DNA of 64,000 bases from contig CAYLPX010000001.1 in assembly GCA_964385825.1 (NCBI GenBank), positions 271,959-335,958 of the forward strand, given 5' to 3'. How positions within the stretch are numbered: the stretch's first letter is position 1; the number at the start of each line of letters is the position of its first letter. Positions 8,303 to 37,498 of this stretch are shown here, piece after piece. This DNA comes from an uncultured Candidatus Saccharibacteria bacterium. GTDB lineage: Bacteria > Patescibacteriota > Minisyncoccia > Phycocordibacterales > JAKFXT01. The translations under genes were made by a program, and so were the position numbers. A model generated the notes under the pieces. That model saw only the letters and a list, made by a program, of their open reading frames with translations, was not told the DNA's origin and made no database searches.

Positions 8303-8321
8303 GCGGAGATGGGGAGATTTG
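8303..8321. repeat. Direct repeat of the tRNA-Ser(CGA) 3' end (gcggagatggggagatttg), joined to the GGTCAC element
   Basis: Identical to 8479-8497 inside the tRNA gene. Confidence 0.85.
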
Positions 8322-8395
8322 GTCACAGATAAATTCTTTCAAAATTTTCCGCGACCCCGACTCGGCGACAAGCCCAAGCAAAGCTTGTCTTGTAT
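8318..8395 (+). repeat. tRNA-associated GGTCAC element, copy E3
   Basis: ggtcacagataaattctttcaaaattttccgcgaccccgactcggcgacaagcc aligns with E1 and E2. Confidence 0.6.
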
Positions 8396-8479
8396 ACCGC
8401 CTCCGTCTTTCAAATCTCCCCGTAACTCACACAATGATGCTTCGCTCAAATAGCATAAAGCTATTTTCGCGAATCATTG

Positions 8480-8566
8480 CGGAGATGGGGAGATTTGAAC
8501 TCCCGATGGGGTTACCCCCATGCCTGATTTCGAGTCAGGTGCCTTCAACCACTCAGCCACATCTCC
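8480..8566 (-). tRNA. tRNA-Ser (anticodon CGA), long variable arm
   Basis: Acceptor GGAGATG/CATCTCC, anticodon stem CCTGA/TCAGG with loop CTCGAAA, variable arm CATGGGGGTAACCCCATC, T arm GGGAG-TTCAAAT-CTCCC. Confidence 0.85.
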
Positions 8567-8588
8567 AAGACATCCTATCCTAACATTT

Positions 8589-8617
8589 TTGGCAATTTTA
8601 TAGAAAAGTGTTATAAT
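8589..8617 (+). promoter_or_regulatory. Sigma70-type promoter for tRNA-Glu (TTGGCA, 17-nt spacer, extended -10 TGtTATAAT)
   Basis: Near-consensus hexamers with 17-nt spacing; an ~80-nt leader with a hairpin plus T-run precedes the tRNA. Confidence 0.5.
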
Positions 8618-8705
8618 CGGCAGCGAGTGAGAAATCAAAAAGCTCGCTTTTTTGTTTGTCGCGAGCGAACCGATTATATGTAATCATATAGTGTCGCGAT
8701 ATTTT

Positions 8706-8777
8706 GGCCCTATCGTCTATCGGTTAGGACACGGCCTTTTCAAGGCTGGAAGCGGAGTTCGACTCTCCGTAGGGTCA
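8706..8777 (+). tRNA. tRNA-Glu (anticodon TTC)
   Basis: Acceptor GGCCCTA/TAGGGTC, D stem GTCT/GGAC, anticodon stem CGGCC/GGCTG with loop TTTTCAA, T arm CGGAG-TTCGACT-CTCCG. Confidence 0.85.
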
Positions 8778-8807
8778 CACGTAGTAACTTGTGACACAAA
8801 GAATCGG

Positions 8808-8836
8808 AAAAAAGGCGGGTACCCCGCCTTTTTTCC
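8808..8836 (+). terminator. Intrinsic terminator after tRNA-Glu (ggcgggtaccccgcc stem, A- and T-tracts on either side)
   Basis: GC stem-loop followed by TTTTTT. Confidence 0.7.
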
Positions 8837-8858
8837 TGCATGACTGTATAATTAAAAC

Positions 8859-9506
8859 ATGCTCTCCCACCTCATAGCACAATTACAGATAATGATTAGC
8901 ACTTATGGGGCTATTGGGGTATTTATCGCAGCGCTTACAGAAGAGGTCATAGCCCCCATTCCTTCAACACTTGTTGCTATGATTGCAGGTTTTTTCCTTA
9001 TTCCTGCACAATCATCACTCCTTTCTGCTGCTCTAGTCGGTATCATTAAAGTCGCTATACCTATGGCACTAGGTATTAGTTTGGGTTCACTACTCTTCTA
9101 TGGAGTAGCCTACTACGGTGGTAAACCCCTACTTGAAAAATATGGCAGATGGTTCGGTCTTTCATGGAAGAACGTTGGGGCTGCTGAAAAAAAGTTTGCC
9201 AAAAACCGTCGAGGTGAAGTAGCACTATTTCTCATGCGAGCTACCCCCTTCTTTCCAAGCGTTGCTATTTCTACCTTCGCAGGACTGATCCGTTATCCTG
9301 TTAAAAGATTCTTCATAATTTCACTTCTGGGGAGTGCAACGCGTTCACTTATAGTGGCGCTCATTGGCTGGCAACTACGCGACGCCTATCTGAAAATTGC
9401 TGACACCCTCGACCACCTTGAAAGCTTTGTTATGGCCGCTATCATATTTGGAGTGGCGGCATACATCGTTTTCAAAATGACTCGTAAAAAAGGAGCTATT
9501 GACTAA
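8859..9506 (+). CDS. DedA / VTT-domain (SNARE-associated) membrane protein
   Basis: Multi-TM protein with DedA-like motifs (EEVIAPIP, FLMRATPFFP). Confidence 0.75.
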   Translation: MLSHLIAQLQIMISTYGAIGVFIAALTEEVIAPIPSTLVAMIAGFFLIPAQSSLLSAALVGIIKVAIPMALGISLGSLLFYGVAYYGGKPLLEKYGRWFGLSWKNVGAAEKKFAKNRRGEVALFLMRATPFFPSVAISTFAGLIRYPVKRFFIISLLGSATRSLIVALIGWQLRDAYLKIADTLDHLESFVMAAIIFGVAAYIVFKMTRKKGAID

Positions 9507-9597
9507 AAGTATAAAAATTAGTATAAAATAGTCTGATCTGCTCTTTCCAGACTTTGCGAGAGCGGTCTTTTTTATTTACCCACAACTGGAGGTAGCC

Positions 9598-10230
9598 ATG
9601 CAGGGAAAAACAACTGCCGGCCAATCGGCTGGCAAGAAGGACATGGGGGCGCTGTTTGCCTCGCTCAAAGCCGGGGACATGTTGATGATTCCCTGCAACG
9701 AGTGTGGCGAGGCCCATACCCACGATTTTGCCGTTCTCAAGACCGAGCAGCACGACGGCGGAATCAAGATCTGGATTTCAAACCCAAACCCCGGAAAGCA
9801 TCATCTGCTCATGCCAGGGGTCAACCCTCTGTCGTGGGAGGCGGACAAGAAGATCATCTTGGACCGGGATGGTGACGAGTTCCCACTCGAAACCGGTGAC
9901 TTCCAGATCGAACGCGAGGCGGCCATGGCGGCTTACCAGAAACACATGGCTCTGCCGAAAATCCGCTGGCCGAAAGCGAAGATCACGAAAGACGACATCA
10001 ATACCGCACTCGAGGAACTCAAGCCGGGAAACATCGTCGATCAGATCCTCAACATGGCGGAGAACGGTGAATTGAAGACCACCGGGGAAATCGCGGCGCT
10101 GACTCTTGCCAATCTCGGCACCGAACCGACGCCAACATTGGTGGCCGCCGTGCTCAGCGTCAGCTTCCTTCTCAAGGAAATCGGGGAAGCGGCTGAGCTT
10201 TCGGTCAGGGTCGTAAGGATCCGCATGTAA
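9598..10230 (+). CDS. Hypothetical protein in GC-rich mini-island A
   Basis: ~60% GC versus ~40% in flanks, GGAGG ribosome-binding site 6 nt upstream, own terminator; CNECGEAH cysteine pair; no family recognised. Confidence 0.55.
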   Translation: MQGKTTAGQSAGKKDMGALFASLKAGDMLMIPCNECGEAHTHDFAVLKTEQHDGGIKIWISNPNPGKHHLLMPGVNPLSWEADKKIILDRDGDEFPLETGDFQIEREAAMAAYQKHMALPKIRWPKAKITKDDINTALEELKPGNIVDQILNMAENGELKTTGEIAALTLANLGTEPTPTLVAAVLSVSFLLKEIGEAAELSVRVVRIRM

Positions 10231-10247
10231 TCTGCCTCACGACGATC

Positions 10248-10275
10248 AAAGCCCGGCGCCAGCCGGGCTTTTTTT
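10248..10275 (+). terminator. Intrinsic terminator (gcccggc-GCCA-gccgggc followed by T7)
   Basis: Perfect GC stem plus T-run. Confidence 0.8.
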
Positions 10276-10285
10276 ATTTCTTATT

Positions 10286-11065
10286 TTATCGTTCTAAATT
10301 CTTTCGCAACACCACAAATGGTTCTTGCCCGTATGGATCCTTCCAGAACTCTACCTGCCAAGGGTGACCGGAATCTTCCACCATTTTTAAAATACGATCA
10401 TGCTGGTAAAAGTCAGCTTCCATATACAGTGTTCCTACTTCAGTAAGTAAATCCCAACCTTTAGTAATAATATAATTATGAAAATATGCCCCACCATCTG
10501 CAGCAAAGAAGGCTAGATGAGGTTCATAGTCCCGCTGTTCCGGATCAAGGTCCTTAAGTGCCTCGGGCGGAATATATGGTGGGTTAGCAACTATGGCATC
10601 ATACTGTCCGGTTAATCCGTCAAAACCATCAGCTGTAAATACTTTCACTCGACTCTTCTCTATATTATTCAGCTCCACACTTTTTTCTATTTGCTCTTTA
10701 AGATCGGGTTGGAGTTCTGATATCTCAACGTAAGAAGTGGGCAAATTCACAAGTAGTGCGAGTCCGATGCAACCTGAGCCAGAAAAGGTGTCCGCGAGGC
10801 GCAGTCGCCTCGCGGACTTTCTTTCAACTTCTTTTAACTCTCCAATTGCCCGCTCCACCCAAAAGGCAGTCTCCTCACGCGGAATCATCGGGTGATGTGA
10901 AAGATCTACCTTAGCCCCCAAAAAATCAACCACACCGAGCACATAAGCAAGCGGTTCTCCACTCTCTAGGCGCGCCACATCCTTTTTAAATTCTGCCCTA
11001 TCCGCATTCCCCCCATACTTAATAAGCTTCACCTGCTCTTTAGCACCCTCTAGATCGTAATACAT
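10286..11065 (-). CDS. prmC: Release-factor glutamine N5-methyltransferase PrmC/HemK
   Basis: NPPY motif (VANPPYIP) and GEPLAYVLG...F motif; start at the internal Met because the upstream part of the ORF covers a terminator hairpin at 11096-11125. Confidence 0.8.
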   Translation of the reverse strand: MYYDLEGAKEQVKLIKYGGNADRAEFKKDVARLESGEPLAYVLGVVDFLGAKVDLSHHPMIPREETAFWVERAIGELKEVERKSARRLRLADTFSGSGCIGLALLVNLPTSYVEISELQPDLKEQIEKSVELNNIEKSRVKVFTADGFDGLTGQYDAIVANPPYIPPEALKDLDPEQRDYEPHLAFFAADGGAYFHNYIITKGWDLLTEVGTLYMEADFYQHDRILKMVEDSGHPWQVEFWKDPYGQEPFVVLRKNLER

Positions 11066-11169
11066 ATTAAAATAGCTTACCGTATTACGGAAACGAAAAA
11101 CAGCCCCAGAGGGGCTGTTTTTCGTGCACTCCATGTGCTTTAAAGAACAAAAAGAACTAAATCAAAAAA

Positions 11170-11946
11170 TTAATTATCAGTCTTGGCTCCGTTATTGCGG
11201 TGCATCTTGCTATGCCCGCGCCCCTCCATCATGCCTGGATTTTTAGTTATAACGATAACCTTAGTCGCTGTAACTGTGGTACCTGCAGCATCCTTTGTTC
11301 CTTCAACTATAACTCGTGCGCCAGACACTACTGCAGTGATAGAAGAAGTTACCCCATCTTTCATAAAGACGGTATTACTTCCGGTCACCACATTAACGAG
11401 CGTTGTTGGAATAGTAGCTACTGTTGTAGTGCTACCCTTCATATGTGGGAGAAACGCATGACTTGCAACTGTAAAGTTTGTCCCAGTTACAGTGCTTACC
11501 GTGCCCATCACTCCCTTTGGAGCCATGATTGATGGCTTACCACCCTCAACTCCACGCGGGCCACCCACACGAATACTAGTAGCTGTAATGGTGGTTCCAT
11601 TAAGTGTTCCTTCAACTACGATCATGTTATTTACCGCTAGATCACTTAGTGCAGCTGCTTTATTTTTACCCTTAAGTATCTTGGCATTAGCCGCATCCAC
11701 GGTGTACGTAGTATTGCTTTTACCAACAATAGTAATACTGGTTCCGTTAATGGCTGTAATTTTGCCAAAAGCCGTAGGAGCTGTGTGCCCTAAGGTGCCC
11801 TTCATGTGCTTCATGAAAGAACCGCCAGTATTTTGAGATGAAGACGAATCTTCTGCTGCAAAAGCAGAGCCAGTAAGCATGGCCGAAATCGCAAGTGTTC
11901 CTGCGAGAATGGCTGTTTTATTTCTAGATAATTTTTTTTGTTTCAT
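11170..11946 (-). CDS. Secreted Thr/Val/Gly-rich protein with tandem internal repeats
   Basis: Signal peptide MKQKKLSRNKTAILAGTLAISAMLTGSAFA; repeated VxVEGT...TTxTAT...V blocks. Confidence 0.55.
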   Translation of the reverse strand: MKQKKLSRNKTAILAGTLAISAMLTGSAFAAEDSSSSQNTGGSFMKHMKGTLGHTAPTAFGKITAINGTSITIVGKSNTTYTVDAANAKILKGKNKAAALSDLAVNNMIVVEGTLNGTTITATSIRVGGPRGVEGGKPSIMAPKGVMGTVSTVTGTNFTVASHAFLPHMKGSTTTVATIPTTLVNVVTGSNTVFMKDGVTSSITAVVSGARVIVEGTKDAAGTTVTATKVIVITKNPGMMEGRGHSKMHRNNGAKTDN

Positions 11947-12638: not shown

Positions 12639-12682
12639 TCAAAAACTCCCCCGCAAAGCTTTGCTTTGCGGGGGAGTTTTCT
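12639..12682 (+). terminator. Intrinsic terminator (aaaactcccccgcaaagc / gctttgcgggggagtttt)
   Basis: 18-bp perfect stem with flanking A/T tracts. Confidence 0.75.
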
Positions 12683-12696
12683 GTAGTATCAGTTTT

Positions 12697-13902
12697 ATGC
12701 GTATTTTAGCCATAGAAACATCTTGTGACGAGACGGCTATAGCCATTCTAGACATTAGCGGGGATACAACTAATCCTACTGTCAAAGTCCTAGGTAATGC
12801 CCTACTCTCACAGATTAATATCCATAAAGAATATGGTGGGGTTTTTCCTATGCTTGCTAAACGTGAACACACTCGCGTAATCACCTCCCTACTTAAAAGT
12901 TCCCTGAAGGAAGCCGAACTTCTAAAGGAATACGTTGCGGAAATTGAAGAGGGTACAAAAGCAGAAATAAAGAAACTTTTAGAAAAAGAGGAGGGGCTTA
13001 GTACAGAACTACTTACCTTACTTGAAAATACAGAGAAGCCCGCTATTGAAGCTATTGCGGTAACCCATGGCCCAGGACTTGAACCAGCACTTTGGGTGGG
13101 AGTGAATTTCGCAACTGCGCTTTCCTTAGCATGGGAACTCCCCCTTATTCCGATTAACCATATGGAAGGACATATTCTTTCTTCCCTTTTAGTTAAAGAC
13201 TCTGGGGAGTACAAACTACCCACACCTTCTTTCCCCCTTCTTGCGCTTCTTATTTCTGGCGGACACACAGAGCTAGTGCTGATGGAAACCTGGGGGACGT
13301 ACAAAGTCATTGGTGAAACAAAAGATGACGCGGTCGGCGAAGCCTATGACAAAGTGGCCCGCATGCTAGGACTCCCATACCCAGGAGGACCAGAAATAAG
13401 TAAGTTAGCTGAAATAGCTCGCACAGAAAAGAAGGCAGGTACCGAATTCAAATTACCAAGACCCATGCTTCACAGTGATGATCTTAATTTTTCTTTTGCC
13501 GGACTTAAAACAGCAGTACTTTATACCGTAAAGAAAATCCCTGAATTAACAGAGACTATTAAGAAAGCATTGGCTCTGGAGTTTGAAAATGCTGTAGCTG
13601 AAGTTTTTGCCAAAAAAGTAGAGAAAGCACTGGAGGAAACAGGGGCACAGACATTTATTGTTGGTGGCGGGGTATCGGCTAATAAAAATATCAGAAAAGT
13701 TCTAAGCGAAATGATGCAAGAAAAATTTCCTGAAGTATCTTTCTACATTCCTGAAGCCAAACTCACTACCGACAACGCCATTATGATAGGCCTTGCTGGC
13801 TACACCCGATTTAAGGGAACACTTACCCCGAAAGAATTGAGGGGTCAAAACAATTTACCGAGTGCTTCTGCTATCAAAGCAGTGGGTAATTTAAAATTAT
13901 AA
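12697..13902 (+). CDS. tsaD: tRNA N6-adenosine threonylcarbamoyltransferase TsaD (Kae1/YgjD family) with a ~60-aa charged insertion
   Basis: MRILAIETSCDETAIAI N-terminus, HMEGHI, GGGVSAN; Glu/Lys-rich insert between the conserved blocks. Confidence 0.85.
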   Translation: MRILAIETSCDETAIAILDISGDTTNPTVKVLGNALLSQINIHKEYGGVFPMLAKREHTRVITSLLKSSLKEAELLKEYVAEIEEGTKAEIKKLLEKEEGLSTELLTLLENTEKPAIEAIAVTHGPGLEPALWVGVNFATALSLAWELPLIPINHMEGHILSSLLVKDSGEYKLPTPSFPLLALLISGGHTELVLMETWGTYKVIGETKDDAVGEAYDKVARMLGLPYPGGPEISKLAEIARTEKKAGTEFKLPRPMLHSDDLNFSFAGLKTAVLYTVKKIPELTETIKKALALEFENAVAEVFAKKVEKALEETGAQTFIVGGGVSANKNIRKVLSEMMQEKFPEVSFYIPEAKLTTDNAIMIGLAGYTRFKGTLTPKELRGQNNLPSASAIKAVGNLKL

Positions 13903-14823: not shown

Positions 14824-16959
14824 ATGGATGAAAAATTCCTCAAACCGTATAACGGATCTGAAGTTGAACCCCGCATATATAAAGCGTGGGAGGAATCTGG
14901 CTACTTCAACCCAGACAAACTCCCTGGTGAGCGGAGTGAAGCATATACCATCATTATGCCCCCACCGAATGCTAATGGGTCACTCCACGCTGGGCATGCT
15001 GTATTCGTAACTATTGAAGACCTGCTTATACGCTATAACCGTATGAAGGGCCTTAGGACCCTATGGCTCCCAGGAGCTGACCATGCTGGCTTTGAAACAC
15101 AGGTAGTGTATGAGAAAAAACTAGAGAAAGAGGGTCGCTCACGTTTTGAAATGACGCCAGAGGAACTTCGTGCGGAAATACTAGAATTCACCCTTGCTAA
15201 TAAAACCTTCATGGAAGGACAACTTAAGGCACTCGGCGCATCATGCGACTGGTCGCGTGAGAAGTTTACCCTGGACAAAGACATAGAAAAGGTTGTGTAT
15301 GGAACTTTCAAACAACTTCATGACGACAACCTTCTTTATCGTGGTAAACGTATTGTGAACTGGTGCGCCAAACACCAAACATCGCTTTCCGAGCTTGAAA
15401 CCGAATACAAAGAAAAGTCAGATCCCTTCTACTATTTCAAATACGGACCCTTCACCATCGGTACCGCGCGACCTGAAACAAAGTTCGGTGACAAGTATGT
15501 GGTGATGCATCCAGAAGACAAGCGCTATATGGAATATGCAAACGGACAAATGATTGAGCTGGAATGGATCAATGGACCTATTACTGCCACCATTATCAAA
15601 GACGAAGCTATCGACATGGAATTCGGTACGGGTGTTATGACCATTACTCCATGGCATGATGAAGTGGATTTTGGTATTGCCGAGCGCCATGAGTTAGATA
15701 AAGAACAAGTCATAGACCTGCGTGGTAAACTTTTGCCTATTGCCGGAGAGTTCGCTGGCATGAAAATAGCAGAGGCTCGCGGCAAAATAGTTGAAAAATT
15801 AAAAGAAAAGGGGCTACTGGTAAAAGTAGACGAAGTCTACAAGCATAATGTAAAAGTTTGCTACAAATGTGAGCAAACTATTGAACCACAAATACTCCCT
15901 CAATGGTTCGTAAAGATGAAACCACTTGCAGACGCGGTACTGGAGCGTATTGAAAATGACGAAGTAGCTTTCTATTCCGACAATTACAAAAAGATTTTGG
16001 TTAACTGGCTCACCAACATTACCGACTGGAACATTAGCCGCCAGATAGCGTGGGGTATTCCTATCCCCATAAAGTTTTGTGATGCTTGTGATACGTCATA
16101 TGTTGATATAGAAGATACACTCACGACTTGCGAGCACTGCCAGGGCGAACTACGCAAAGAACAAGATACCTTTGATACTTGGTTTTCCTCTGGTCAGTGG
16201 CCATTTGCCACTCTTGGCTACCCCAATAGTGAGGACTACCGAACTTTTTATCCCACACAAGTGATGGAAACTGCAGGTGACATCATCTTCTTCTGGGTGG
16301 CGCGCATGCTCATGCTTGGACTTTACCGGACTGGACAACTCCCCTTCACTACCGTATACCTCCACGGCACCGTGACGGCACGTGATGGCAAAAAAATGTC
16401 TAAGTCTAAGGGCAATGCGACCAGCCCCCTTGAACTAACTGAAAAGTATGGCACTGATGCCCTACGTATGGCCCTCATTATCGGCAACACTCCCGGAACA
16501 CCCACCGCACTTTATGAAGAGAAAATAAAAGCCTACAAACTCTTTGCTAACAAAATCTGGAACATCACCCGCTTTATTCTTACTAGCAACAAGGGAGTTG
16601 ATCTGCATGAGAAGCCAACGCTTACTGGTGGATCTGTTGACATCATGGCTCAGCTAGCAGAACTTATTCGTGACGTAACACTTGATATTGAAAACTATCG
16701 TTTTTACTTAGCTGGTGAAAAACTCTACCATTATGTGTGGCACACCTTTGCTGATGTGATACTAGAATCATGTAAAGATGAACTCAAAAATGGGACACCA
16801 GAGAAAAAATATGAAGTACAGTGGCTTCTCAACCACATACTCACCGTAGTCCTAAAACTCCTACACCCCTTCATGCCCTTCATAACCGAAGAAATTTGGA
16901 GTAGCTTACCCACAGAAAACAAACAAATGCTCATCGTGGAGCCTTGGCCTACGGTATAA
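14824..16959 (+). CDS. valS: Valine--tRNA ligase, short form without C-terminal coiled-coil
   Basis: HIGH-type motif (LHAGH), KMSKS, ValRS-specific DTWFSSGQWPF. Confidence 0.9.
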   Translation: MDEKFLKPYNGSEVEPRIYKAWEESGYFNPDKLPGERSEAYTIIMPPPNANGSLHAGHAVFVTIEDLLIRYNRMKGLRTLWLPGADHAGFETQVVYEKKLEKEGRSRFEMTPEELRAEILEFTLANKTFMEGQLKALGASCDWSREKFTLDKDIEKVVYGTFKQLHDDNLLYRGKRIVNWCAKHQTSLSELETEYKEKSDPFYYFKYGPFTIGTARPETKFGDKYVVMHPEDKRYMEYANGQMIELEWINGPITATIIKDEAIDMEFGTGVMTITPWHDEVDFGIAERHELDKEQVIDLRGKLLPIAGEFAGMKIAEARGKIVEKLKEKGLLVKVDEVYKHNVKVCYKCEQTIEPQILPQWFVKMKPLADAVLERIENDEVAFYSDNYKKILVNWLTNITDWNISRQIAWGIPIPIKFCDACDTSYVDIEDTLTTCEHCQGELRKEQDTFDTWFSSGQWPFATLGYPNSEDYRTFYPTQVMETAGDIIFFWVARMLMLGLYRTGQLPFTTVYLHGTVTARDGKKMSKSKGNATSPLELTEKYGTDALRMALIIGNTPGTPTALYEEKIKAYKLFANKIWNITRFILTSNKGVDLHEKPTLTGGSVDIMAQLAELIRDVTLDIENYRFYLAGEKLYHYVWHTFADVILESCKDELKNGTPEKKYEVQWLLNHILTVVLKLLHPFMPFITEEIWSSLPTENKQMLIVEPWPTV

Positions 16960-19170: not shown

Positions 19171-19211
19171 CAAAAATACTCCACATTTTTGTGCCGAGGA
19201 CCGGGCTCGAA
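19171..19211. repeat. 41-bp direct repeat, copy 1 (tRNA-Phe 3'-terminal 22 nt plus 19 nt of 3' flank)
   Basis: Identical to 19324-19364. Confidence 0.9.
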
Positions 19212-19292
19212 TCTTACAGATTCAGTCCCCGTGTTTGGATTTTTTCTCGCACAAGAGTGCTTGAAAAATGCTCAAACAGGCTTCGAGCCCGG

Positions 19293-19336
19293 CACGTTTG
19301 TCTCCCAGACAAACTCCTCGCGTCAAAAATACTCCA
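19293..19336. repeat. T-arm fragment in opposite orientation (ggcttcgagcccggcac) followed by hairpin tttgtct-ccc-agacaaa
   Basis: Matches the tRNA-Phe T-loop/T-stem in the orientation opposite to the gene; the same fragment-plus-hairpin module is seen at the Arg, Gly and Ser(CGA) loci. Confidence 0.7.
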
Positions 19337-19364
19337 CATTTTTGTGCCGAGGACCGGGCTCGAA
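19324..19364. repeat. 41-bp direct repeat, copy 2 (overlaps the 3' end of the tRNA-Phe gene)
   Basis: Identical to 19171-19211. Confidence 0.9.
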
Positions 19365-19417
19365 CCGGTGACCCCTTCCTCTTCAGGGAAATGCTCTACC
19401 AACTGAGCTACCTCGGC
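19345..19417 (-). tRNA. tRNA-Phe (anticodon GAA)
   Basis: Acceptor GCCGAGG/CCTCGGC, D arm GCTC-AGTTGGTA-GAGC, anticodon loop CTGAAGA, T arm ACCGG-TTCGAGC-CCGGT. Confidence 0.85.
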
Positions 19418-19427
19418 ATATTTATTA

Positions 19428-19492
19428 TCTACCAACTGAGCCCTGCCCTGTCTGCCGACAGGCAGGCTGCAAAGGCAGGTACCTCGGCAAAT
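19428..19492 (-). pseudogene. Disrupted partial copy of the tRNA-Phe 5' half (acceptor plus D arm) split by a 39-nt GC-rich insert
   Basis: The reverse complement reads TGCCGAGGTA|CCTGCCTTTGCAGCCTGCCTGTCGGCAGACAGGGCAGGG|CTCAGTTGGTAGAT. Confidence 0.55.
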
Positions 19493-19969: not shown

Positions 19970-19988
19970 GGTGCTCTCGGCCGGAATC
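19970..19988. repeat. Direct repeat of the tRNA-Arg(CCT) 3' end (ggtgctctcggccggaatc)
   Basis: Identical to 20104-20122 in the tRNA gene. Confidence 0.85.
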
Positions 19989-20030
19989 TCGCCCAACGGT
20001 CGCGGGTGCTTTTCCATTTCGCTCCGCTCA

Positions 20031-20071
20031 ATAAGGAAAAGCCTTTCGATTCCGGCACATAAGCAAAGCAG
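20031..20071. repeat. T-arm fragment in opposite orientation (cctttcgattccggcac) followed by hairpin ataagcaaa-gcag-tttgcttat
   Basis: Same module as at the Gly and Phe loci. Confidence 0.7.
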
Positions 20072-20105
20072 TTTGCTTATTCAGAACACCCTCATTATAT
20101 TCGGG

Positions 20106-20177
20106 TGCTCTCGGCCGGAATCGAACCGACAATAACTCCTTAGGACGGAGCAGTTATATCCATTTAACTACGAGAGC
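20106..20177 (-). tRNA. tRNA-Arg (anticodon CCT)
   Basis: Acceptor GCTCTCG/CGAGAGC, D stem GTTA/TAAC, anticodon stem GCTCC/GGAGT with loop GTCCTAA, T arm GTCGG-TTCGATT-CCGGC. Confidence 0.75.
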
Positions 20178-20621: not shown

Positions 20622-20642
20622 GTAGTGCGGGTAGGGGTAATC
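20622..20642. repeat. Direct repeat of the tRNA-Gly 3' end (tagtgcgggtaggggtaatcg)
   Basis: Identical to 20766-20786. Confidence 0.85.
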
Positions 20643-20663
20643 GCCCCCCTACAGGAGCAGTAC

Positions 20664-20754
20664 AGCTTTTCCTTATGTTTGCTTGATAGGAATCAATCAA
20701 ACATAAGGAAAAGCTTTTTTGATTACCCCACACAGACAAAGCAGTTTGTCTGTT
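20664..20754. repeat. 18-bp perfect hairpin, T-arm fragment in opposite orientation (ttttgattaccccacac), and hairpin acagacaaa-gcag-tttgtctgt
   Basis: agcttttccttatgtttg / caaacataaggaaaagct is a perfect inverted repeat; the module order matches the Arg and Phe loci. Confidence 0.7.
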
Positions 20755-20767
20755 TACCACAGATTTA

Positions 20768-20838
20768 GTGCGGGTAGGGGTAATCGAAACCCCGCCTCAA
20801 CCTTGGGAAGGTCGCATTCTGCCACTAAACTATACCCG
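20768..20838 (-). tRNA. tRNA-Gly (anticodon CCC)
   Basis: Acceptor GCGGGTA/TACCCGC, anticodon stem CGACC/GGTTG with loop TTCCCAA, T arm GGGGT-TTCGATT-ACCCC. Confidence 0.8.
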
Positions 20839-20882
20839 CATTAATACGCGTATAGTTTAGCAAAATAAATACTGTCCTTAAA

Positions 20883-24085: not shown

Positions 24086-24114
24086 TAGTATCTACCCGCC
24101 TAACTTAACCCAAT

Positions 24115-24160
24115 GAACGTGACGTCTATTCACGCTATAGCGTAAATAGACGTCACGTTC
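24115..24160. repeat. 46-bp near-perfect palindrome (1 mismatch) containing two GACGTC sites and a central cgctatagcg
   Basis: gaacgtgacgtctattcacgctatagcgtaaatagacgtcacgttc. Confidence 0.8.
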
Positions 24161-24263
24161 ACTTTCCCTATTTCTCTATTTTTATATTCTGAAATCACTA
24201 ATCTTCTTCGCTTGCTCCTATTTACATTCGCAAATCTTAGAACACAAATCTTCCCTTAATCTC

Positions 24264-29715: not shown

Positions 29716-29889
29716 AATTTCTTATAGCTAAAATGTAGACAAATTTTATTTTAGTATCCTAACATTGTGGGTAGTTGTGGATAAAAGGGTGTATTAATGC
29801 TTATATGGCTTATAATGAACCAAGTAAGCATAAGCGCATGCAATGCTTGCGGATAAAAAGCCACAGTTGATATTTGAGAGACAAAATCG

Positions 29890-29972
29890 TACCGGTGACG
29901 GGATTTGAACCCGCAATCCAGCCAGGAGCTAGTTCCGTAAACTAGTGCGTATACCAATTTCGCCACACCGGC
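29890..29972 (-). tRNA. Class II (long variable arm) tRNA, Leu-like body; anticodon reads ACG in my manual fold; identity uncertain
   Basis: Acceptor GCCGGTG/CACCGGT (G1-U72), D arm GCG-AAATTGGTATA-CGC, anticodon stem CTAGT/ACTAG with loop TTACGGA, 14-nt variable arm, T arm GCGGG-TTCAAAT-CCCGT, discriminator A. Confidence 0.6.
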
Positions 29973-33913: not shown

Positions 33914-33929
33914 ATAAAGTAAGTATATC

Positions 33930-34202
33930 TTATTTTTTATCCATCCAATTCCACCATTTCAATTTCTTGGGATCATGCTTTTTATGTTCTGCGAAGTAGA
34001 CGGCACAGCGGAATACATAAAGAAGGCATCTATCCTGCACTTTCCCCTCAAACTTATTTGACTTAGCGTATAATTTTTCCGGATTTTCTCCCTTAAGGCA
34101 GGAAACTCGTTTAATACCAATATTCCGTAAATCTGCAGCTATACTCTTCCCCACCCCGGGAATACTTTCAAGTGATCCTTCTTTAGGATTACCTTTTTTC
34201 AT
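33930..34202 (-). CDS. Helix-hairpin-helix domain protein (Cdd1-like)
   Basis: LESIPGVGKSIAADLRNIGI is an HhH motif. Confidence 0.5.
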   Translation of the reverse strand: MKKGNPKEGSLESIPGVGKSIAADLRNIGIKRVSCLKGENPEKLYAKSNKFEGKVQDRCLLYVFRCAVYFAEHKKHDPKKLKWWNWMDKK

Positions 34203-34205
34203 AAA

Positions 34206-34979
34206 TTATGGCCGAAGGCCCCTTCCGGTTTTAAAGAGCCACCATGCCACACCAGCAAGCAACAAATTAAATACACAAAGTATCGCAAAAGAAAGTGAGA
34301 CTGAAGTATCGCTCGTACCCAAGAATCCATACCGAAAACCGTTGATCATGTACAGTATGGGGTTGAAAAGCGAAACTACTTGCCAGAAATGTGGGAGCAC
34401 ACTGACCGAGTAGAACACACCGCCTAGGTAAGTAAGTGGGGTTAAAACGAATGTGGGGAAAATAGAAACGCTGTCAAAAGAGGTGCCGAATACTCCATTA
34501 ATAAGCCCAGCGAGCGAAAAGAGGGTTGAGGTTAAGAAAAAGAAAGCGAGAATAATGGGGAACGAGAAAATAGGAATATGGGTGAAGAACATAGCAAGGC
34601 CAATAATCACCGCACCAGTTATAAAAGCCCGCACTATTCCCCCACTAATAATACCAAGAATCAAAATAAGGTACGGAGTGGGCGACACCAAAATCTCCTC
34701 AATATGTTTCATAAACTTTGCTGAAAAGAAGGTAAATGCTGTATTCATGAAGGCATTGACGATAATTGACATCATGACAAGCCCCGGCACAATAAACTGC
34801 ATATAGGAGTGTCCATTGATAGGCGCTATCTGGCTACCAATAAACTTACCAAAAATGAGGAAGTAGAGGCCGGTGGTGATTGCGGGTGGCAAAAGTGTCT
34901 GAGTCCAAATACGAAAAAGGCGCACTACATCTTTGCGTACAATCGTATAGAAACTAGTCCACATTTGTGCAGCGTTCAT
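34206..34979 (-). CDS. ABC-2 type transporter permease
   Basis: 6 TM helices; ABC-2 family pattern; adjacent to an ABC ATPase. Confidence 0.8.
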   Translation of the reverse strand: MNAAQMWTSFYTIVRKDVVRLFRIWTQTLLPPAITTGLYFLIFGKFIGSQIAPINGHSYMQFIVPGLVMMSIIVNAFMNTAFTFFSAKFMKHIEEILVSPTPYLILILGIISGGIVRAFITGAVIIGLAMFFTHIPIFSFPIILAFFFLTSTLFSLAGLINGVFGTSFDSVSIFPTFVLTPLTYLGGVFYSVSVLPHFWQVVSLFNPILYMINGFRYGFLGTSDTSVSLSFAILCVFNLLLAGVAWWLFKTGRGLRP

Positions 34980-34980
34980 A

Positions 34981-35961
34981 TTATTTAGTGTGATGGATAA
35001 AGAATTCTTCTAGTCGATTGCTCTTGTTGCGCAAACTTAGAACTTTATAACCCTTTTTGTTTAAATCAGCGATAGCTTCATTCAGTGTATAGGTTTTAGT
35101 AAGTGTCATCTCAAGTGTTTTACTTTCGGGAATAACTGCACAAGGTACGGGAAAAGCGTTTTTATCACTTTCAGTCATTTCCTTATTGAGGTCGAAGACA
35201 AACGTCTCTTCTTCCATATTGGCTAAAAGCTTTTTAATTTCCCCCTCTGCTACTATTTCACCCTTGTTGATAATAGCGACATTACGACAAAGCTGCTCAG
35301 CCTCTTCAAGGTAATGAGTAGTGAGAATAATAGTGACTCCACTTTTGTTAAGCTCCGTGAGAAAAGTCCACATGCCACGCCGAAGCTCTATATCCACTCC
35401 CGCGGTCGGCTCATCCAGTATGAGGAGCTGTGGCTGGTGTACCAGCGCTCTCACTATCATGAGACGGCGCTTCATACCACCAGAGAGTTTCATTGATTGC
35501 TCATTGCGTTTCTCCCAAAGTCCCAAATCTTTAAGGTACTTTTCTGTAAGTGGCATAGCATCTTCGCGTGATATGCCATAGTACCCCGCTTGGTTGAGAA
35601 TAATGTCTATCACTTTCTCAAAAATGCCAGCATTAAACTCCTGCGGAACAACACCCACATGCATTTTTGCTTTCTGCGCATCATCGTCTATGGAAAGTCC
35701 TGCTATCTTTACTTCCCCTCCACTTTTATTCACCAGTCCACATACAACATTAATAGCAGTTGTCTTCCCTGCACCATTAGGGCCAAGCAGAGCGAAAAAG
35801 TCTCCTTTTGGTACCGTGAGGTTAATACCCCTTAGCGCCACGGTTCCCGAATCGTAGACTTTCTTTAGATTTTTTATTTCAAGGGCATTCACGAACGTGT
35901 GGGAGTTAATCCTTAATGAAAGGAATATTGCCAGCAATATCAGCCTTGCCGATTTGAACAC
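34981..35961 (-). CDS. ABC transporter ATP-binding protein (true start probably a downstream GTG)
   Basis: Walker A GPNGAGKTT, signature LSGGMKRRL, Walker B LILDEPTAGVD; the annotated N-terminus overlaps the upstream gene by 56 bp. Confidence 0.85.
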   Translation of the reverse strand: MFKSARLILLAIFLSLRINSHTFVNALEIKNLKKVYDSGTVALRGINLTVPKGDFFALLGPNGAGKTTAINVVCGLVNKSGGEVKIAGLSIDDDAQKAKMHVGVVPQEFNAGIFEKVIDIILNQAGYYGISREDAMPLTEKYLKDLGLWEKRNEQSMKLSGGMKRRLMIVRALVHQPQLLILDEPTAGVDIELRRGMWTFLTELNKSGVTIILTTHYLEEAEQLCRNVAIINKGEIVAEGEIKKLLANMEEETFVFDLNKEMTESDKNAFPVPCAVIPESKTLEMTLTKTYTLNEAIADLNKKGYKVLSLRNKSNRLEEFFIHHTK

Positions 35962-36418
35962 CCTTATTTCGAAGGAGGTCGTACGCCGTTGTTACATGAA
36001 AGAAGAAATTCGGATGCACATAAAAGCGTAAGTAGGTGTCACCCACAAGATGCATACCTGGGAAATACGGAATGGTTACTGTAATTGTCGCAGCATCCTT
36101 AAAATCTTCCGGTGAAAATGTCTTCAAATACTCAACTGTCTTATCAATACGTGCATAGAGCTCAGCAAAATTACTTTCGGTATCTTCGAACTTTGGTGCT
36201 TCCTTACCAGTGAGTCTTGCAGCGGCCCCTTTGGCATTGTCAGTTGCAACTTGCACCTGTTTTACGAGAGGAAACATATCTGGCGCAAAGCGAAGGGCAA
36301 GCATGTCAGTTTCAGGAATACCCTGCTCTTTGGCAAACGCTTCACCTTTTGCGAGAACCCCCTTTAGAGCAGTGAGTGTGTTGATAAATACAGGAACAGA
36401 AAAGTCATAGTAATTCAT
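35906..36418 (-). CDS. DUF1993 family protein
   Basis: 170 aa all-helical; DUF1993-like blocks (FINTLTALKGVL, TAYDLLR). Confidence 0.5.
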   Translation of the reverse strand: MNYYDFSVPVFINTLTALKGVLAKGEAFAKEQGIPETDMLALRFAPDMFPLVKQVQVATDNAKGAAARLTGKEAPKFEDTESNFAELYARIDKTVEYLKTFSPEDFKDAATITVTIPYFPGMHLVGDTYLRFYVHPNFFFHVTTAYDLLRNKGVQIGKADIAGNIPFIKD

Positions 36419-36532
36419 AAAATTATTATATTAAAGAATGGTTAAAGTAATCCATTTTCGCACACACCCTCCAGAATAACAAATCACTCAGAAGTTGCGA
36501 AAATCACACCATTAGTTAGTATAAAGCAATAT

Positions 36533-36913
36533 ATGTTTGAAAATTTAGGAACCAGTGATTTTGGAGACAACCCTGAAAAACAAGGGGTTCTTATTCATTC
36601 TGAGGAAAACGAAGGGGGTATAAACCCCGAGGTAATTATGGAGTTAAGTGGTGCTTGGAAAGAATTGCATGCAAAACTTGAGACAATGACTCCTGTCCAA
36701 AAAATGGAAAATCTGAATGAAACACTTGATGAATTAATCAGAATAGCAAGAACTTACATCACTCATGTTAACGGTGGCACTTTTCCAACCGGAGTCTACA
36801 CAACAACGAGAGACATGCTCGCGCACCTTGAAGGAGACGATGAGTCCACACTATTTAATGGACTTACAAAAACCTACGACGAAATACTAAGCCTGCTTGG
36901 CAAGAAAAAATAA
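36533..36913 (+). CDS. Hypothetical acidic protein
   Basis: 126-aa ORF. Confidence 0.4.
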   Translation: MFENLGTSDFGDNPEKQGVLIHSEENEGGINPEVIMELSGAWKELHAKLETMTPVQKMENLNETLDELIRIARTYITHVNGGTFPTGVYTTTRDMLAHLEGDDESTLFNGLTKTYDEILSLLGKKK

Positions 36914-36940
36914 AAAAGACCGCGCACTTCGTGCGCGGTC
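36913..36940 (-). terminator. Intrinsic terminator (gaccgcgcac-TTC-gtgcgcggtc) for the GC-rich gene 36957-37220
   Basis: 10-bp perfect stem; A6 on the plus side gives a T-run on the minus transcript. Confidence 0.75.
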
Positions 36941-36956
36941 ACTCGAGGATGGAAGC

Positions 36957-37220
36957 TCAGCGAATGAGCCTTGGCCTCCTCTTGCTGTCCCCGAACCCCT
37001 TGGCGGGGTCAAACTTGTGCTTGGGGTGGTCGTAGTACGGCTGGTGACTGCCAGCCTGCGCTACGTCACTAACCACCCCATCCTGTGCATGCTGGCGCGC
37101 CATTTTGGCGGCCACATCAACATGCCCCGCATCCTCCGGGTCAAAGGCCACGTAGGCCTGTCCCGGAAAATGGAACGCCTTAGGAGACGCATTCGCCCCC
37201 AACTTCTTTGATTCCCCCAT
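36957..37220 (-). CDS. Hypothetical small protein, GC-rich mini-island F
   Basis: AAGGAGG ribosome-binding site 6 nt upstream of ATG; GC-rich; own terminator. Confidence 0.5.
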   Translation of the reverse strand: MGESKKLGANASPKAFHFPGQAYVAFDPEDAGHVDVAAKMARQHAQDGVVSDVAQAGSHQPYYDHPKHKFDPAKGFGDSKRRPRLIR

Positions 37221-37359
37221 GGATCCCTCCTTGGAAAAGGGGTTAGAAAAAACGAAATGAGCCCTAAGCTCCGAAATATATTATATCATATATATACAAA
37301 AAAGCAAGTCATCACGACCTGCTCGGGAATTCAGAAAATCTCATTTCGCTAAGGTATTT

Positions 37360-37379
37360 GCGGAGACGGAGAGATTTGG
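37360..37379. repeat. Imperfect copy of a tRNA-Ser 3' end (gcggagacggagagatttgg) joined to a GGTCAGGAATATTTT motif
   Basis: 17/19 match to 37412-37430 (tRNA-Ser GGA) and to the Ser(CGA) 3' end; ggtcaggaatatttt also occurs at 4723-4737 as ggtcagggatatttt. Confidence 0.7.
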
Positions 37380-37413
37380 TCAGGAATATTTTAGGATCCC
37401 TCCCATACAGAGC

Positions 37414-37498
37414 GGAGGCGGCGAGATTTGAACTCGCGAAACCTTTCGGTTTACACGCTTTCCAAGCGTGCGCACTAGACCACTATGCGACGCCTCCG
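37414..37498 (-). tRNA. tRNA-Ser (anticodon GGA), long variable arm
   Basis: Acceptor GGAGGCG/CGCCTCC, D stem GCAT/GTGC, anticodon stem CACGC/GCGTG with loop TTGGAAA, variable arm TAAACCGAAAGGTTTC, T arm GCGAG-TTCAAAT-CTCGC. Confidence 0.8.

Follow-up and report, generated by a model that had tools for sequence, protein, structure and literature searches.

The window, i.e. the whole stretch of 64,000 nucleotides analyzed here from an uncultured Candidatus Saccharibacteria bacterium, encodes eight tRNA genes according to ARAGORN and Rfam, seven on the minus strand and one, tRNA-Glu, on the plus strand. Six of the eight are adjoined by small, strongly folded modules that contain no ORF and carry copies of tRNA ends. 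Alongside the other two, tRNA-Arg(ACG) (29889-29972) and the plus-strand tRNA-Glu, a search of the window revealed neither a direct nor an antisense copy. The features are as follows.

4682-4788, minus strand: nested rearrangement at the tRNA-Val locus
4789-4851, minus strand: type-A scaffold at tRNA-Val, with P2 and P3 and GTGACC at its end (self-BLAST, covariance model)
4852-4872, minus strand: perfect 21-nt antisense copy of tRNA-Val positions 54-74, GTGCGCGGTATAGGAGTTGAA (sequence comparison)
4876-4888, minus strand: small hairpin before the antisense copy
4898-4971, minus strand: tRNA-Val(GAC), host gene of an element without a direct copy (ARAGORN, Rfam)
8302-8478, minus strand: T-class element of tRNA-Ser(CGA) (covariance model, 71.7 bits), with H0 hairpin 8433-8478, antisense T-arm 8409-8421 and type-A scaffold 8322-8408
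8479-8566, minus strand: tRNA-Ser(CGA) (ARAGORN)
19171-19343, minus strand: T-class element of tRNA-Phe, scaffold type B2, with partial anti-acceptor 19314-19323, hairpin 19297-19313, CGTG plus antisense T-arm 19282-19296, scaffold with UGUAA hairpin 19212-19281 and right repeat copy 19171-19211
19344-19417, minus strand: tRNA-Phe(GAA) (ARAGORN)
19428-19488, minus strand: upstream partial copy of tRNA-Phe nt 1-23 (GCCGAGGTA / GCTCAGTTGGTAGA)
19970-20103, minus strand: T-class element of tRNA-Arg(CCT), scaffold type B1, with wobble-paired anti-acceptor within 20081-20103, hp1 20059-20080, GTG plus antisense T-arm 20045-20058, scaffold 19989-20044 and 19-nt tRNA 3′-end copy 19970-19988
20104-20177, minus strand: tRNA-Arg(CCT) (ARAGORN)
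20623-20767, minus strand: T-class element of tRNA-Gly(CCC), scaffold type B2, with degenerate anti-acceptor 20754-20767, hp1 20732-20753, GT plus antisense T-arm 20721-20731, long P2 hairpin and TGTACTG motif 20644-20720 and 21-nt 3′-end copy 20623-20643
20768-20839, minus strand: tRNA-Gly(CCC) (ARAGORN)
29889-29972, minus strand: tRNA-Arg(ACG) (ARAGORN/Rfam)
37359-37390, minus strand: truncated scaffold tail (ending in AATATTCCTGACC, 37378-37390) and 3′-end fragment of another Ser-tRNA-like sequence (37359-37377)
37412-37497, minus strand: tRNA-Ser(GGA) (ARAGORN)
37528-37642, minus strand: element on the 5′ side of tRNA-Ser(GGA) (covariance model, 69.5 bits), with pseudo 5′ fragment nt 1-17 37626-37642, hairpin 37600-37625, type-A scaffold 37537-37599 and D-arm copy TAGTGCGCA 37528-37536

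Exact copies of the tRNA 3′ end, 19-41 nt in length, lie 115-157 nt downstream of the Ser(CGA), Phe, Arg(CCT) and Gly(CCC) genes. At Ser(CGA) the copy comprises 20 nt (8302-8321 = 8478-8497), and at Phe the direct repeat reaches 41 nt (19171-19211 = 19324-19364), the left copy, 19324-19364, overlapping the tRNA end. The first-pass annotation had described such copies behind every minus-strand tRNA, five of five. The Val and Arg(ACG) genes had been overlooked, however, and therefore neither expression is correct: Ser(GGA), Val and Arg(ACG) have no exact downstream copy. At the four loci that do, a segment of the T-loop/T-stem in the opposite orientation (Ser(CGA) 13, Phe 11, Arg(CCT) 12 and Gly(CCC) 9 nt) is preceded by G(T)G and a hairpin, an arrangement that had been recognized correctly between tRNA and copy. 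The hairpins are indeed related, with loops on the tRNA strand reading CTGC at both Arg and Gly and GGG at Phe. A suggested role as a terminator, on the other hand, is not supported, as no T-run follows this hairpin (hp1) and the terminator scan did not call it.

The phenomenon extends beyond the region first described, to the Val locus (4682-4897). Here there is no direct copy of the tRNA's own 3′ end, only the inverted one. The type-A scaffold is 90% identical over 52 nt (4797-4848, self-BLAST) to the copy at 37545-37596, and the covariance model scores 74.4 bits for a hit at 4779-4862. The nested piece consists of a 5′-truncated type-A′ sequence (4723-4768) between 31-nt direct repeats (4781-4811 and 4682-4712).

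At Ser(GGA), what had been taken for an imperfect copy of the gene's own 3′ end belongs to another Ser-tRNA-like sequence. That is, the 19-nt fragment at 37359-37377 (AAATCTCTCCGTCTCCGCA) is nearer to the Ser(CGA) than to the Ser(GGA) 3′ end, a scaffold tail ending in CCTGACC sits directly before it, and a relative whose LepA is 73% identical has 17 nt of it (ATCTCTCCGTCTCCGCA) downstream of its own tRNA-Ser(GGA). Partial copies also occur on the 5′ side, upstream of both Phe (19428-19488) and Ser(GGA) (37528-37642). The Phe copy, split by a 38-nt hairpin (19442-19479), is a remnant of a 5′-side (D-loop) class. The element upstream of Ser(GGA) has an ortholog in L012 whose stems show compensatory changes, and such elements are kept, again with compensatory changes, in species with only 73% LepA identity.

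Architecture and occurrence of the element family

The elements are 110-190 nt long and modular, combining the hairpin hp1 with a scaffold of type A, B1 or B2. They contain no ORF and match no Rfam family, and no earlier description of the family was found in the literature searched. On the tRNA strand the canonical order is the intact tRNA, an optional H0 hairpin, a segment antisense to the acceptor 3′ strand, hp1, GYG with a segment antisense to T-loop/T-stem positions 54-65, the scaffold (two or three hairpins), and last, as a direct copy, the tRNA sequence from T-loop position 56/57 through the 3′ end. In the mirror form, which lies upstream of tRNAs, nt 1 to about 19 are copied, up to G18G19 of the D-loop, and at least one element abuts a copy whose start lies in the anticodon loop. 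Of 57 elements, 29 have their copy start at position 56/57, and in 31 the direct repeat ends 0 to +2 nt past the tRNA. The antisense block spans positions 54-56 plus 57 onward in 46 of 58 elements and therefore matches the intact tRNA, not the copy alone.

One and the same scaffold occurs next to different tRNAs with different arms. In L021 the elements at Gly and at Arg share 95.7% identity over 140 nt and differ in their arms, while the second element after tRNA-Phe in L011 carries Phe arms on the Arg-type scaffold of the window (84%). A family of miniature elements, one of the possibilities raised at first, thus exists, with scaffolds recurring across tRNAs and species and with tandem and nested copies; only the arms are tRNA-derived, however, the scaffolds showing no relation to tRNA. 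Likewise, a systematic process acting on tRNA ends is supported, though it is not confined to 3′ ends: D-loop (5′-end) and anticodon-loop versions exist too.

That the repeats lie beyond coincidence is confirmed by a chance expectation of about 1e-9 for a 19-nt exact repeat within 200 nt and by the situation in relatives. In a non-redundant set from 80 related species, 3′-end copies are found downstream of 27 of 125 tRNAs versus 2 on the upstream side, which served as control, and 5′-end copies upstream in 10 cases versus 2 downstream. With a length of at least 10 nt, a downstream 3′ copy is present at 43 of 146 tRNAs (3 upstream). The copy spacing is 115-270 nt in all cases, and no kb-scale version of the duplication was found. 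Among 127 metagenomic hp1 matches, 54 come after a same-strand tRNA, representing 20 amino-acid specificities, and all 18 hits of the type-A covariance model in 896 kb adjoin a tRNA on the same strand.

Folding, conservation and alternative explanations

In 51 of 52 elements it is the tRNA-sense strand that forms the more stable fold, with a mean advantage of 7.5 kcal/mol over the antisense strand. The type-A alignment shows double-sided changes in 7 of 14 pairs, an invariant G.U pair (23/23) and invariant CGGA/GAG/GGG.CG/TGAC. When tRNA and element are folded together to minimum free energy, the arms have two alternative partners, the 3′ half of the tRNA itself and the copy. This pairing had been anticipated and is also borne out by co-variation over about 20 tRNA identities; as modelled, it could possibly act as a switch. 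The Arg(CCT) element is 94.8% identical to its L011 ortholog while coding DNA there reaches about 76%, and such conservation, like the persistence of the elements upstream of Ser(GGA), suits a host function no less than a selfish element.

These properties (the sense-strand fold, the covariation and invariant nucleotides, the conservation of orthologous elements far above flanks and coding DNA, the alternative pairing), as well as the strict co-orientation of every element with its tRNA, speak for the main rival explanation, which is a host cis-acting RNA. The modules would then be transcribed together with the tRNA as structured 3′ trailers or 5′ leaders and be involved in maturation, folding control, 3′-end protection, processing by RNase III/P/Z or insulation from neighbouring genes, the duplicated end and antisense arms merely forming closing helices. 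We nevertheless regard this as rather unlikely, given that the modules are dispensable: orthologous sites are empty in many species and two of the eight window tRNAs lack a module. A processing signal would not be expected to shuffle its modules or to occur in tandem, nested, truncated and chimeric copies, and a canonical bidirectional terminator (H0) separates tRNA from element in many relatives. Moreover, a role in processing leaves the 56/57 copy start and the 5′-side mirror class unexplained.

Alternatively, hairpin-prone DNA beside tRNA genes could have given rise to the modules as mutational by-products, with neither a dedicated mechanism nor a function. Inverted copies would result from template switching during replication (palindrome extension), while direct copies and tandem arrays would go back to slippage or unequal crossing-over. 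In line with this, several relatives (L079, L066, L090) have a long perfect palindrome with H0 at its centre and the anti-acceptor as its outer part, tandem arrays occur, repeat lengths vary from 19 to 50 nt, and both arms of stems have changed together between 98.8%-identical genomes (at least seven base pairs of one element altered on both sides). Such an origin seems improbable, though, since it would explain neither the invariant scaffold nucleotides common to distant species and about 20 tRNA identities, nor the sharp 56/57 junction with the antisense boundary at position 54, nor the exclusive tRNA association of type A.

The arms could also rebuild an acceptor/T-stem minihelix, making the elements stable tRNA mimics that act in trans as small RNAs, with hp1 replacing the D and anticodon arms, the scaffold replacing the T-loop, and processing by RNase P, RNase Z and the CCA-adding enzyme. 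The topology (acceptor-like helix, hp1 at the 7/49 junction, T-stem-like helix) does fit, and the acceptor has the same sequence as in the neighbouring tRNA. This explanation appears very improbable, however: GU:AC pairing over the discriminator lengthens the helix and would be expected to block RNase P and RNase Z, both of which recognize a T-loop that is destroyed here, Val lacks any copy strand, and the use of dozens of distinct mimics per genome is not obvious.

The classical att core of tRNA-integrating elements is a direct repeat that extends from the T-loop to the 3′ end of the tRNA, and tandem occupancy of a regenerated site is typical of these, but scars of integrase-mediated islands or prophages, with attL/attR cores around 110-190 bp left by internal deletion, are highly improbable, given the uniformly short spacings with neither intermediates nor integrase remnants, a content that is a conserved structured family and not random leftovers, the same scaffolds at about 20 tRNA identities, the existence of a 5′-side class, and internal antisense arms foreign to att scars.

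A possible route of insertion into tRNA loops

The reading we favour, at a probability of about 40%, sees the elements as non-autonomous modules. They would insert into loops of tRNA genes, an event that would be tolerated because it duplicates the displaced gene end and leaves one tRNA intact. The antisense arms, spanning the insertion point of the uninterrupted tRNA, may provide target recognition by base pairing, presumably in the element's single-stranded form, either transcript or ssDNA; after integration they would clamp the displaced end into a closed multi-helix fold. Spread, loss and reshuffling could proceed via recombination on tRNA identity, the elements' own direct repeats and shared modules.

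We count for insertion the mobile-like states: the orthologous tRNA-Gly site that is empty in many species and filled in others, the tandem elements (L011, L051, L124, and L185 with a 5 x 136-nt array), the nested Val piece, the repeat of about 50 nt enclosing an older fragment in L012, and the two-sided changes of base pairs between 98.8%-identical genomes. The generality and polarity of the copies, the modularity with arms that follow the tRNA, and the junction positions count for the same reading. Sense-strand stability, the type-A double-sided changes and invariants and the 18/18 tRNA association are counted for a single-stranded functional form. Also on this side is the lack of any protein or known RNA: besides the missing Rfam match, the examined window proteins, among them most of the long ORFs, include neither an integrase nor a transposase or reverse transcriptase. 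Against insertion, neither an autonomous partner nor an enzyme was found, and circular or excised forms were not seen. Further counted against it are the conservation of orthologous elements above that of coding DNA, the absence of presence/absence polymorphism among near-identical strains of the window species, some family relatives that follow protein genes without a long direct repeat (L113, L118), and the need to re-specify all three tRNA-matching segments for a new tRNA. The L021 Arg antisense arm resembles a one-base adaptation of the Gly arm, a similarity that suggests selection after arrival and not templating.

Several known systems share part of these features. tRNA-integrating elements with tyrosine integrases (prophages, ICEs, genomic islands, CIMEs) are likewise flanked by a direct repeat made up of the tRNA 3′ part, starting in the T-loop or anticodon loop, and have an element-proximal copy that restores the gene, and tandem occupancy; the present elements differ in their size without integrase or ORF, in their shared scaffolds, and in their internal antisense target copies, covarying intrastrand structure and D-loop/5′-end class. 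In integron attC sites and the CTX-phi attP(+) hairpin (XerCD), too, one strand forms an imperfect hairpin conserved in structure and not in sequence, and stable DNA-type hairpin motifs such as GCGAAGC are frequent. The folded CTX-phi strand imitates its duplex target on the chromosome, and the antisense arm with the internal tRNA 3′ part would do likewise here. Yet the present elements have no R-box or dif-like consensus and no linked recombinase, their target is a tRNA loop instead of attI or dif, and the fold may be RNA. MITEs, REP/REPIN and IS200/IS605-derived palindrome-associated elements are also short, non-coding, multi-copy, hairpin-rich, non-autonomous and intergenic in compact genomes, but have fixed ends, short or no target duplications and no target-specific sequence, in contrast to the tRNA-specific arms, 19-50-nt repeats and strict tRNA co-orientation seen here.

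Group I introns of tRNAs (Intron_gpI) occur in the same phylum as structured RNA insertions in tRNA loops, with an internal guide that pairs with the exon on both sides of the insertion point and mostly without homing endonucleases. These introns, however, lie in the anticodon loop (35/36 and other positions), measure at least 200 nt, have a P3-P9 core and interrupt the gene, whereas the present elements are too small and give no Intron_gpI match, and the duplicated end leaves the tRNA intact, so that splicing is unneeded. Guide-bearing mobile-element RNAs (IS110 bridge/seekRNA, TnpB omega-RNA, group II EBS-IBS) share a conserved scaffold with variable target-matching segments and an antisense arm covering the insertion point, but here no cognate protein lies nearby, there is no sequence or Rfam similarity, the arms of 12-21 nt are paired in cis with the target copy, and the 19-50-nt duplication sets the elements apart from all of those systems. 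Tentatively, then, the elements may represent a large family of protein-less structured insertion modules that colonize the tRNA genes of Patescibacteria.

Copies of tRNA ends in the window

The window, from an uncultured Patescibacteria genome of the Paceibacteria/Parcubacteria type, encodes eight tRNAs (ARAGORN and Rfam), with Val, Ser-CGA, Phe, Arg-CCT, Gly-CCC, Arg-ACG and Ser-GGA on the minus strand and Glu on the plus strand, among housekeeping genes (FtsA/Z, ValRS, LepA, MurJ, RNR, RNase J and RNase P RNA). The closest relatives of its LepA in the genome collection are all Patescibacteria MAGs, and contigs identical to the window are present in several JGI, ENA and Logan assemblies. Six of the eight tRNAs bear an element. 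The first-pass annotation had stated that every minus-strand tRNA, five of five, is followed by a copy of its own 3′ end; this generalization does not hold, since there are seven such tRNAs and tRNA-Arg(ACG) lacks any copy. The copies themselves are real and far beyond chance, with exact repeats of 19–41 nt at four loci. At these loci (Ser-CGA, Phe, Arg-CCT and Gly-CCC) the direct copy is located 115–157 nt downstream, and a short hairpin precedes each antisense block.

Copies of tRNA ends flanking tRNAs of the window
tRNA-Ser(CGA), minus strand: direct 3′-end copy of 20 nt; antisense T-arm block of 13 nt
tRNA-Phe, minus strand: direct 3′-end copy of 41 nt; antisense T-arm block of 11 nt
tRNA-Arg(CCT), minus strand: direct 3′-end copy of 19 nt; antisense T-arm block of 12 nt
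tRNA-Gly(CCC), minus strand: direct 3′-end copy of 21 nt; antisense T-arm block of 9 nt
tRNA-Val, minus strand: no direct 3′-end copy; perfect antisense block of 21 nt
tRNA-Arg(ACG), minus strand: no direct copy; no antisense block
tRNA-Glu, plus strand: no direct copy; no antisense block

The antisense copy at tRNA-Val corresponds to positions 54–74 (tRNA numbering) and is followed by a scaffold of the common family; the locus also contains a 5′-truncated piece flanked by 31-nt repeats. The 3′-end fragment after tRNA-Ser(GGA) is preceded by a scaffold tail and resembles the end of a different Ser tRNA, and 17 nt of it (ATCTCTCCGTCTCCGCA) are also found 3′ of tRNA-Ser(GGA) in L012, a related locus whose LepA is 73% identical. 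Partial copies of the tRNA 5′ end occur upstream of tRNA-Phe and tRNA-Ser(GGA).

Other features recorded in the window were the following:
12642–12680, 24114–24161 and 49943–49986: long near-perfect palindromes, bidirectional-terminator-like, between convergent genes
12661–13902, plus strand: TsaD, 413 aa, with a domain match in two pieces and an N-terminal extension
14824–16959, plus strand: ValRS of only 711 aa, matching approximately the first 700 of 860 profile positions, the C-terminal part being seemingly absent
20664–20715: long near-perfect palindrome, which is the P2 hairpin of the Gly element
29889–29972, minus strand: tRNA-Arg(ACG), 84 nt (Rfam 54 bits), with an apparent long variable arm, unusual for Arg, and no flanking element
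43288–43325 and 43633–43670: exact direct repeat of 38 nt, copies 345 nt apart, each with a 25-nt near-palindrome; no tRNA adjoins

Architecture and predicted folding of the elements

Read on the tRNA strand, the order of parts is tRNA, an optional hairpin (H0), an anti-acceptor segment (e.g. GTGCGGGTA), the small hairpin hp1, GYG plus the complement of tRNA positions 54–65, the scaffold and finally the copy. In relatives H0 is often a bidirectional terminator and has sometimes grown into a long palindrome that takes in the acceptor 3′ strand. The hp1 hairpin reads NN-AAGCAAA-CTGC-TTTGCTT-NN, with a stem that co-varies and a mostly conserved loop. The copy starts at position 56/57, in the T-loop, in 29 of 57 elements, and the repeat ends 0 to +2 nt past the tRNA in 31 of the 57, with a tail of up to +20; its length varies from 10 to ~50 nt, the latter in L012. 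The antisense block starts at position 54 or 53 in 44 of 58 elements and spans 54–56 plus 57 onward in 46 of the 58. As it covers both sides of 56/57, it is complementary to the uninterrupted tRNA and not merely to the displaced copy. The 5′ copies, for their part, stop after G18G19; G18/G19 and positions 55/56 make up the tRNA elbow.

Three scaffold types (A, B1 and B2) form the element cores. In an alignment of 23 type-A sequences the motifs CGGA, GAG, GGG.CG and TGAC are invariant, the P2 hairpin has a GGA/GA internal loop, and the base of P3 (GGUCG/UGACC) includes a G.U pair conserved in all 23; 7 of the 14 predicted pairs show double-sided changes. Types B1 and B2 have in common a GCUUUUCC...GGAAAAGC hairpin and carry either ACCCGCGACCGUnGGGCGAG or GUAUACUG plus a UGUAA hairpin.

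The tRNA-sense strand is more stable than the antisense strand in 51 of 52 elements, by 7.5 kcal/mol on average, which argues that the functional form is single-stranded and of tRNA polarity. Judged by their loops, in which GNRA/UNCG tetraloops are few and GNA triloops and GCGAAGC many, the elements could be RNA or single-stranded DNA. Taken alone, the element is predicted to close on itself, with the copy paired to the antisense arm. When the tRNA is included, the minimum free energy fold at four of five loci has the antisense arms paired with the 3′ half of the tRNA and the 5′ acceptor strand of the tRNA paired with the downstream copy, so that the modelled transcript would resemble a tRNA with a closed insertion at 56/57. 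Because of the repeat, the two folds are equivalent. Folding from tRNA to repeat supports the first-pass suggestion that the inverted fragment pairs with the tRNA or its copy. The promoter scan of the window gave no informative result, and the intrinsic terminator scan of the window did not call hp1 or the scaffold hairpins; H0 is often terminator-like in relatives, and is one module only.

Distribution and proposed turnover

The tRNA-flanking structured elements are a real, lineage-wide class. The set of relatives comprised loci syntenic with LepA from 80 GTDB species, ~12 kb each. Comparison of these orthologous loci, as suggested at first pass, revealed 3′-end duplicates in relatives as well: 43 of 146 tRNAs have a direct 3′-end copy of at least 10 nt within 400 nt downstream, compared to 3 upstream, and an inverted block was found downstream of 46 and upstream of 6 of the 146. 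In the non-redundant set 3′ copies number 27 downstream versus 2 upstream and 5′ copies 10 upstream versus 2 downstream; that is, the polarity is strict. The spacing between tRNA and copy is 115–270 nt throughout, and no kb-scale version of the duplication occurs among the loci of the 80 species. The orthologous site at tRNA-Gly(CCC) lacks an element in many species; in others it is occupied, at times by two elements in tandem. A search for empty-site relatives using a neighbouring 124-aa ORF returned one homologue only (60% identity), from a sister species similar to that of L011, a locus from a sister genus member. A covariance model built on the type-A alignment detected only three full copies and one partial copy in the window, all at tRNAs, and gave 18 hits in the 896 kb of the 80 species; each of the 18 shares its strand with a tRNA no more than 300 nt away.

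A metagenome scan with the 18-nt hp1 hairpin as query yielded at least 127 matches. Among the 127 matches listed, 54 have a tRNA on the same strand no more than 150 nt upstream, and these tRNAs represent 20 amino-acid specificities. In these elements the antisense T-arm follows 4 nt past hp1, and the copy is found another 60–160 nt on. A mirror class is located upstream of tRNAs, in the order copy of nt 1 to ~22, hp1, another scaffold, anti-acceptor and real tRNA, and one element adjoins a tRNA copy starting in the anticodon loop. In viral contigs the hp1 18-mer gave a single chance match, within a coding region. A few elements are located 3′ of protein genes. In two metagenome loci (L113 and L118) type-A elements adjoin an orthologous gene for a small protein (..WSKR*), immediately past its stop codon. 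Pairing with the final 13 nt of this ORF lengthens the hp1 stem, and a long direct repeat is absent; the element family is therefore not strictly tRNA-bound.

Two further metagenome loci stood out. In L185 (~9900–10580, minus strand) five identical 136-nt type-A units are arranged in tandem downstream of a tRNA that already has a B2 element, and the arms of the array match the junction of tRNA 3′ end and trailer instead of the T-arm. In L211 a tRNA with an element (~2358–2431) was assigned anticodon TTA by ARAGORN ('Stop', suppressor-like), and its 3′ end is nearly identical to that of tRNA-Lys(CTT) of L210.

Scaffolds and arms appear in varying combinations. In the related locus L021 the elements at Gly and Arg share 95.7% identity across 140 nt, a region bounded by T-loop-derived sequences, while their arms differ; the antisense arm at Arg resembles the Gly arm adapted by a single base. 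The second element after tRNA-Phe in L011 combines the Arg-type scaffold of the window with Phe arms. The Arg element is 94.8% identical between the window and L011, with the differences in loops, compared to ~76% nucleotide identity for the genes, and the element upstream of tRNA-Ser(GGA), common to the window and L012, shows compensatory stem changes. Between L011 and L213, which are 98.8% identical, one Phe element has at least 7 base pairs altered on both sides amid identical surroundings, which implies replacement by recombination among element variants.

Some same-species contigs end inside elements, namely in the Arg element (window 20076) and in the Phe repeat (window 19200). Contig L004 (3380–3652), likewise of the window species, departs from the window exactly at a 38-nt hairpin insert upstream of tRNA-Phe (window 19443), beyond which lies an unrelated ORF. 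Contig L214 (jgi 3300045388 Ga0490039_004943, 1–4782) combines, as a mosaic, sequence of the window species with that of a co-occurring L011/L213-like species, with switch points within tRNA-Arg and tRNA-Phe and a swapped segment that holds a 255-aa hydrolase gene; it may be a real recombinant between the two species or a chimera assembled across identical tRNAs.

Interpretation and relation to known classes

The best-supported reading, to which we give a probability of about 0.4, is that the elements are non-autonomous insertion modules in tRNA loops. The modules would be tolerated there through duplication of the displaced gene end, the junction-spanning antisense arms could allow a single-stranded form to recognize the intact target by base pairing, and the tandem, nested, truncated and mosaic states, together with module shuffling, point to recombination-driven turnover. 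The main rival, a host cis-acting RNA, is kept in play by strong conservation at orthologous sites and by strict co-orientation with the tRNA, and we regard it as rather unlikely. Similarly doubtful is a new base-pairing-programmed mobile element (RNA- or ssDNA-guided, non-autonomous) or a new ribozyme or intron-like RNA. In the former case, the antisense arm would read the tRNA elbow loops (T-loop at 56|57, D-loop after G18G19) and insertion would duplicate the paired target segment, such that the essential gene survives; in the latter, the conserved three-way-junction scaffold would act at the 56|57 junction.

Known classes share some of these traits. Like tRNA-integrating islands and prophages using tyrosine integrases, the elements have a direct repeat of the tRNA 3′ end at both ends that restores the tRNA, starts in the T-loop and mostly stops at the tRNA end. 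The integrase gene and kb-scale cargo of such islands are absent, however, with spacings of 115–270 nt and no ORF inside, and the window proteins examined, which cover most long ORFs, included no integrase, transposase or reverse transcriptase. The uniform small size, conserved structured content, ~20 target identities and the 5′-side class also exclude simple att scars of large islands. Folded single-stranded att sites of the integron attC or CTX type are similar in their strand-specific imperfect hairpin and conserved structure (seen here as a strand bias in 51 of the 52 elements, as covariation and as an invariant G.T/G.U pair); no R″/R′ core-site consensus (RYYYAAC/GTTRRRY) or XerCD arms were seen by eye in the elements. 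MITEs have terminal inverted repeats that do not vary and a short target-site duplication of constant length, whereas the inverted segments here are target-specific, differing at every tRNA, and the direct repeat ranges from 10 to ~50 nt; no autonomous transposase-encoding relative was found in the window, the 80 loci of ~12 kb or 120 metagenomic loci. The guide loops of IS200/IS605 omega-RNAs and IS110 bridge RNAs are unpaired, whereas the arms of the elements are paired in cis, and the window has no TnpB/IscB or IS110 recombinase gene. A group I intron interrupts its host gene, whereas these elements, of 110–190 nt, leave the upstream tRNA complete, and the P3–P9 core (Rfam Intron_gpI) gave no hit even at E ≤ 10. 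Among the Rfam 15 families only tRNAs and RNase P reached the gathering score in the window, with chance-level hits only over the elements at E ≤ 10.

Target-primed reverse transcription would account for the precise 3′ junction and the truncated copies, but neither for a repeat that stops sharply where the tRNA ends nor for the 5′-side class, and no reverse transcriptase was seen. A retroviral-type primer-binding site was rejected, as the antisense arm has no TGG to complement CCA and the copies match gene flanks instead of the mature tRNA. The arms are antisense and not paralogous pseudo-tRNA sequence, since the Ser arm ATTTGAA is complementary to TTCAAAT, and the GT in front of the anti-acceptor to AC. 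A putative foreign CCA-bearing tRNA 3′ end in the Val locus (GAATCCTGTCTTGCGAGCCA) is really the start of a second scaffold (GCGAGCCAGGGTCG). The hammerhead-like CTGATGAG in the Val and Ser(GGA) scaffolds is one variant of the variable hpA hairpin, a hammerhead ribozyme being ruled out by the absent GAAA core and zero Rfam hits, and a C/D-box RNA is dismissed by the wrong motif order and the bacterial host.

In the literature searched nothing was found on tRNA-flanking elements of this kind, the only related description found for Patescibacteria being that of anticodon-loop group I introns (PMC13011429), and the class has apparently not been described before. We cautiously group it, as a variant, with the mobile or structured repeat elements that target tRNA genes.

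The elements break metagenome assemblies, may yield chimeric contigs at tRNA genes, and can mislead predictors of tRNAs, islands and att sites. Patescibacteria genomes are among the smallest and most streamlined bacterial ones, yet carry these modules at many tRNA genes. If mobile, the modules would represent a protein-less element living inside essential conserved genes without harm, and the match of their arms to the target would hint that insertion is programmable and guided by base pairing, a chemistry that might be exploitable. Should the modules be host RNAs, they would add a hitherto unrecognized level to tRNA biogenesis or regulation in a phylum that has hardly been studied by experiment.
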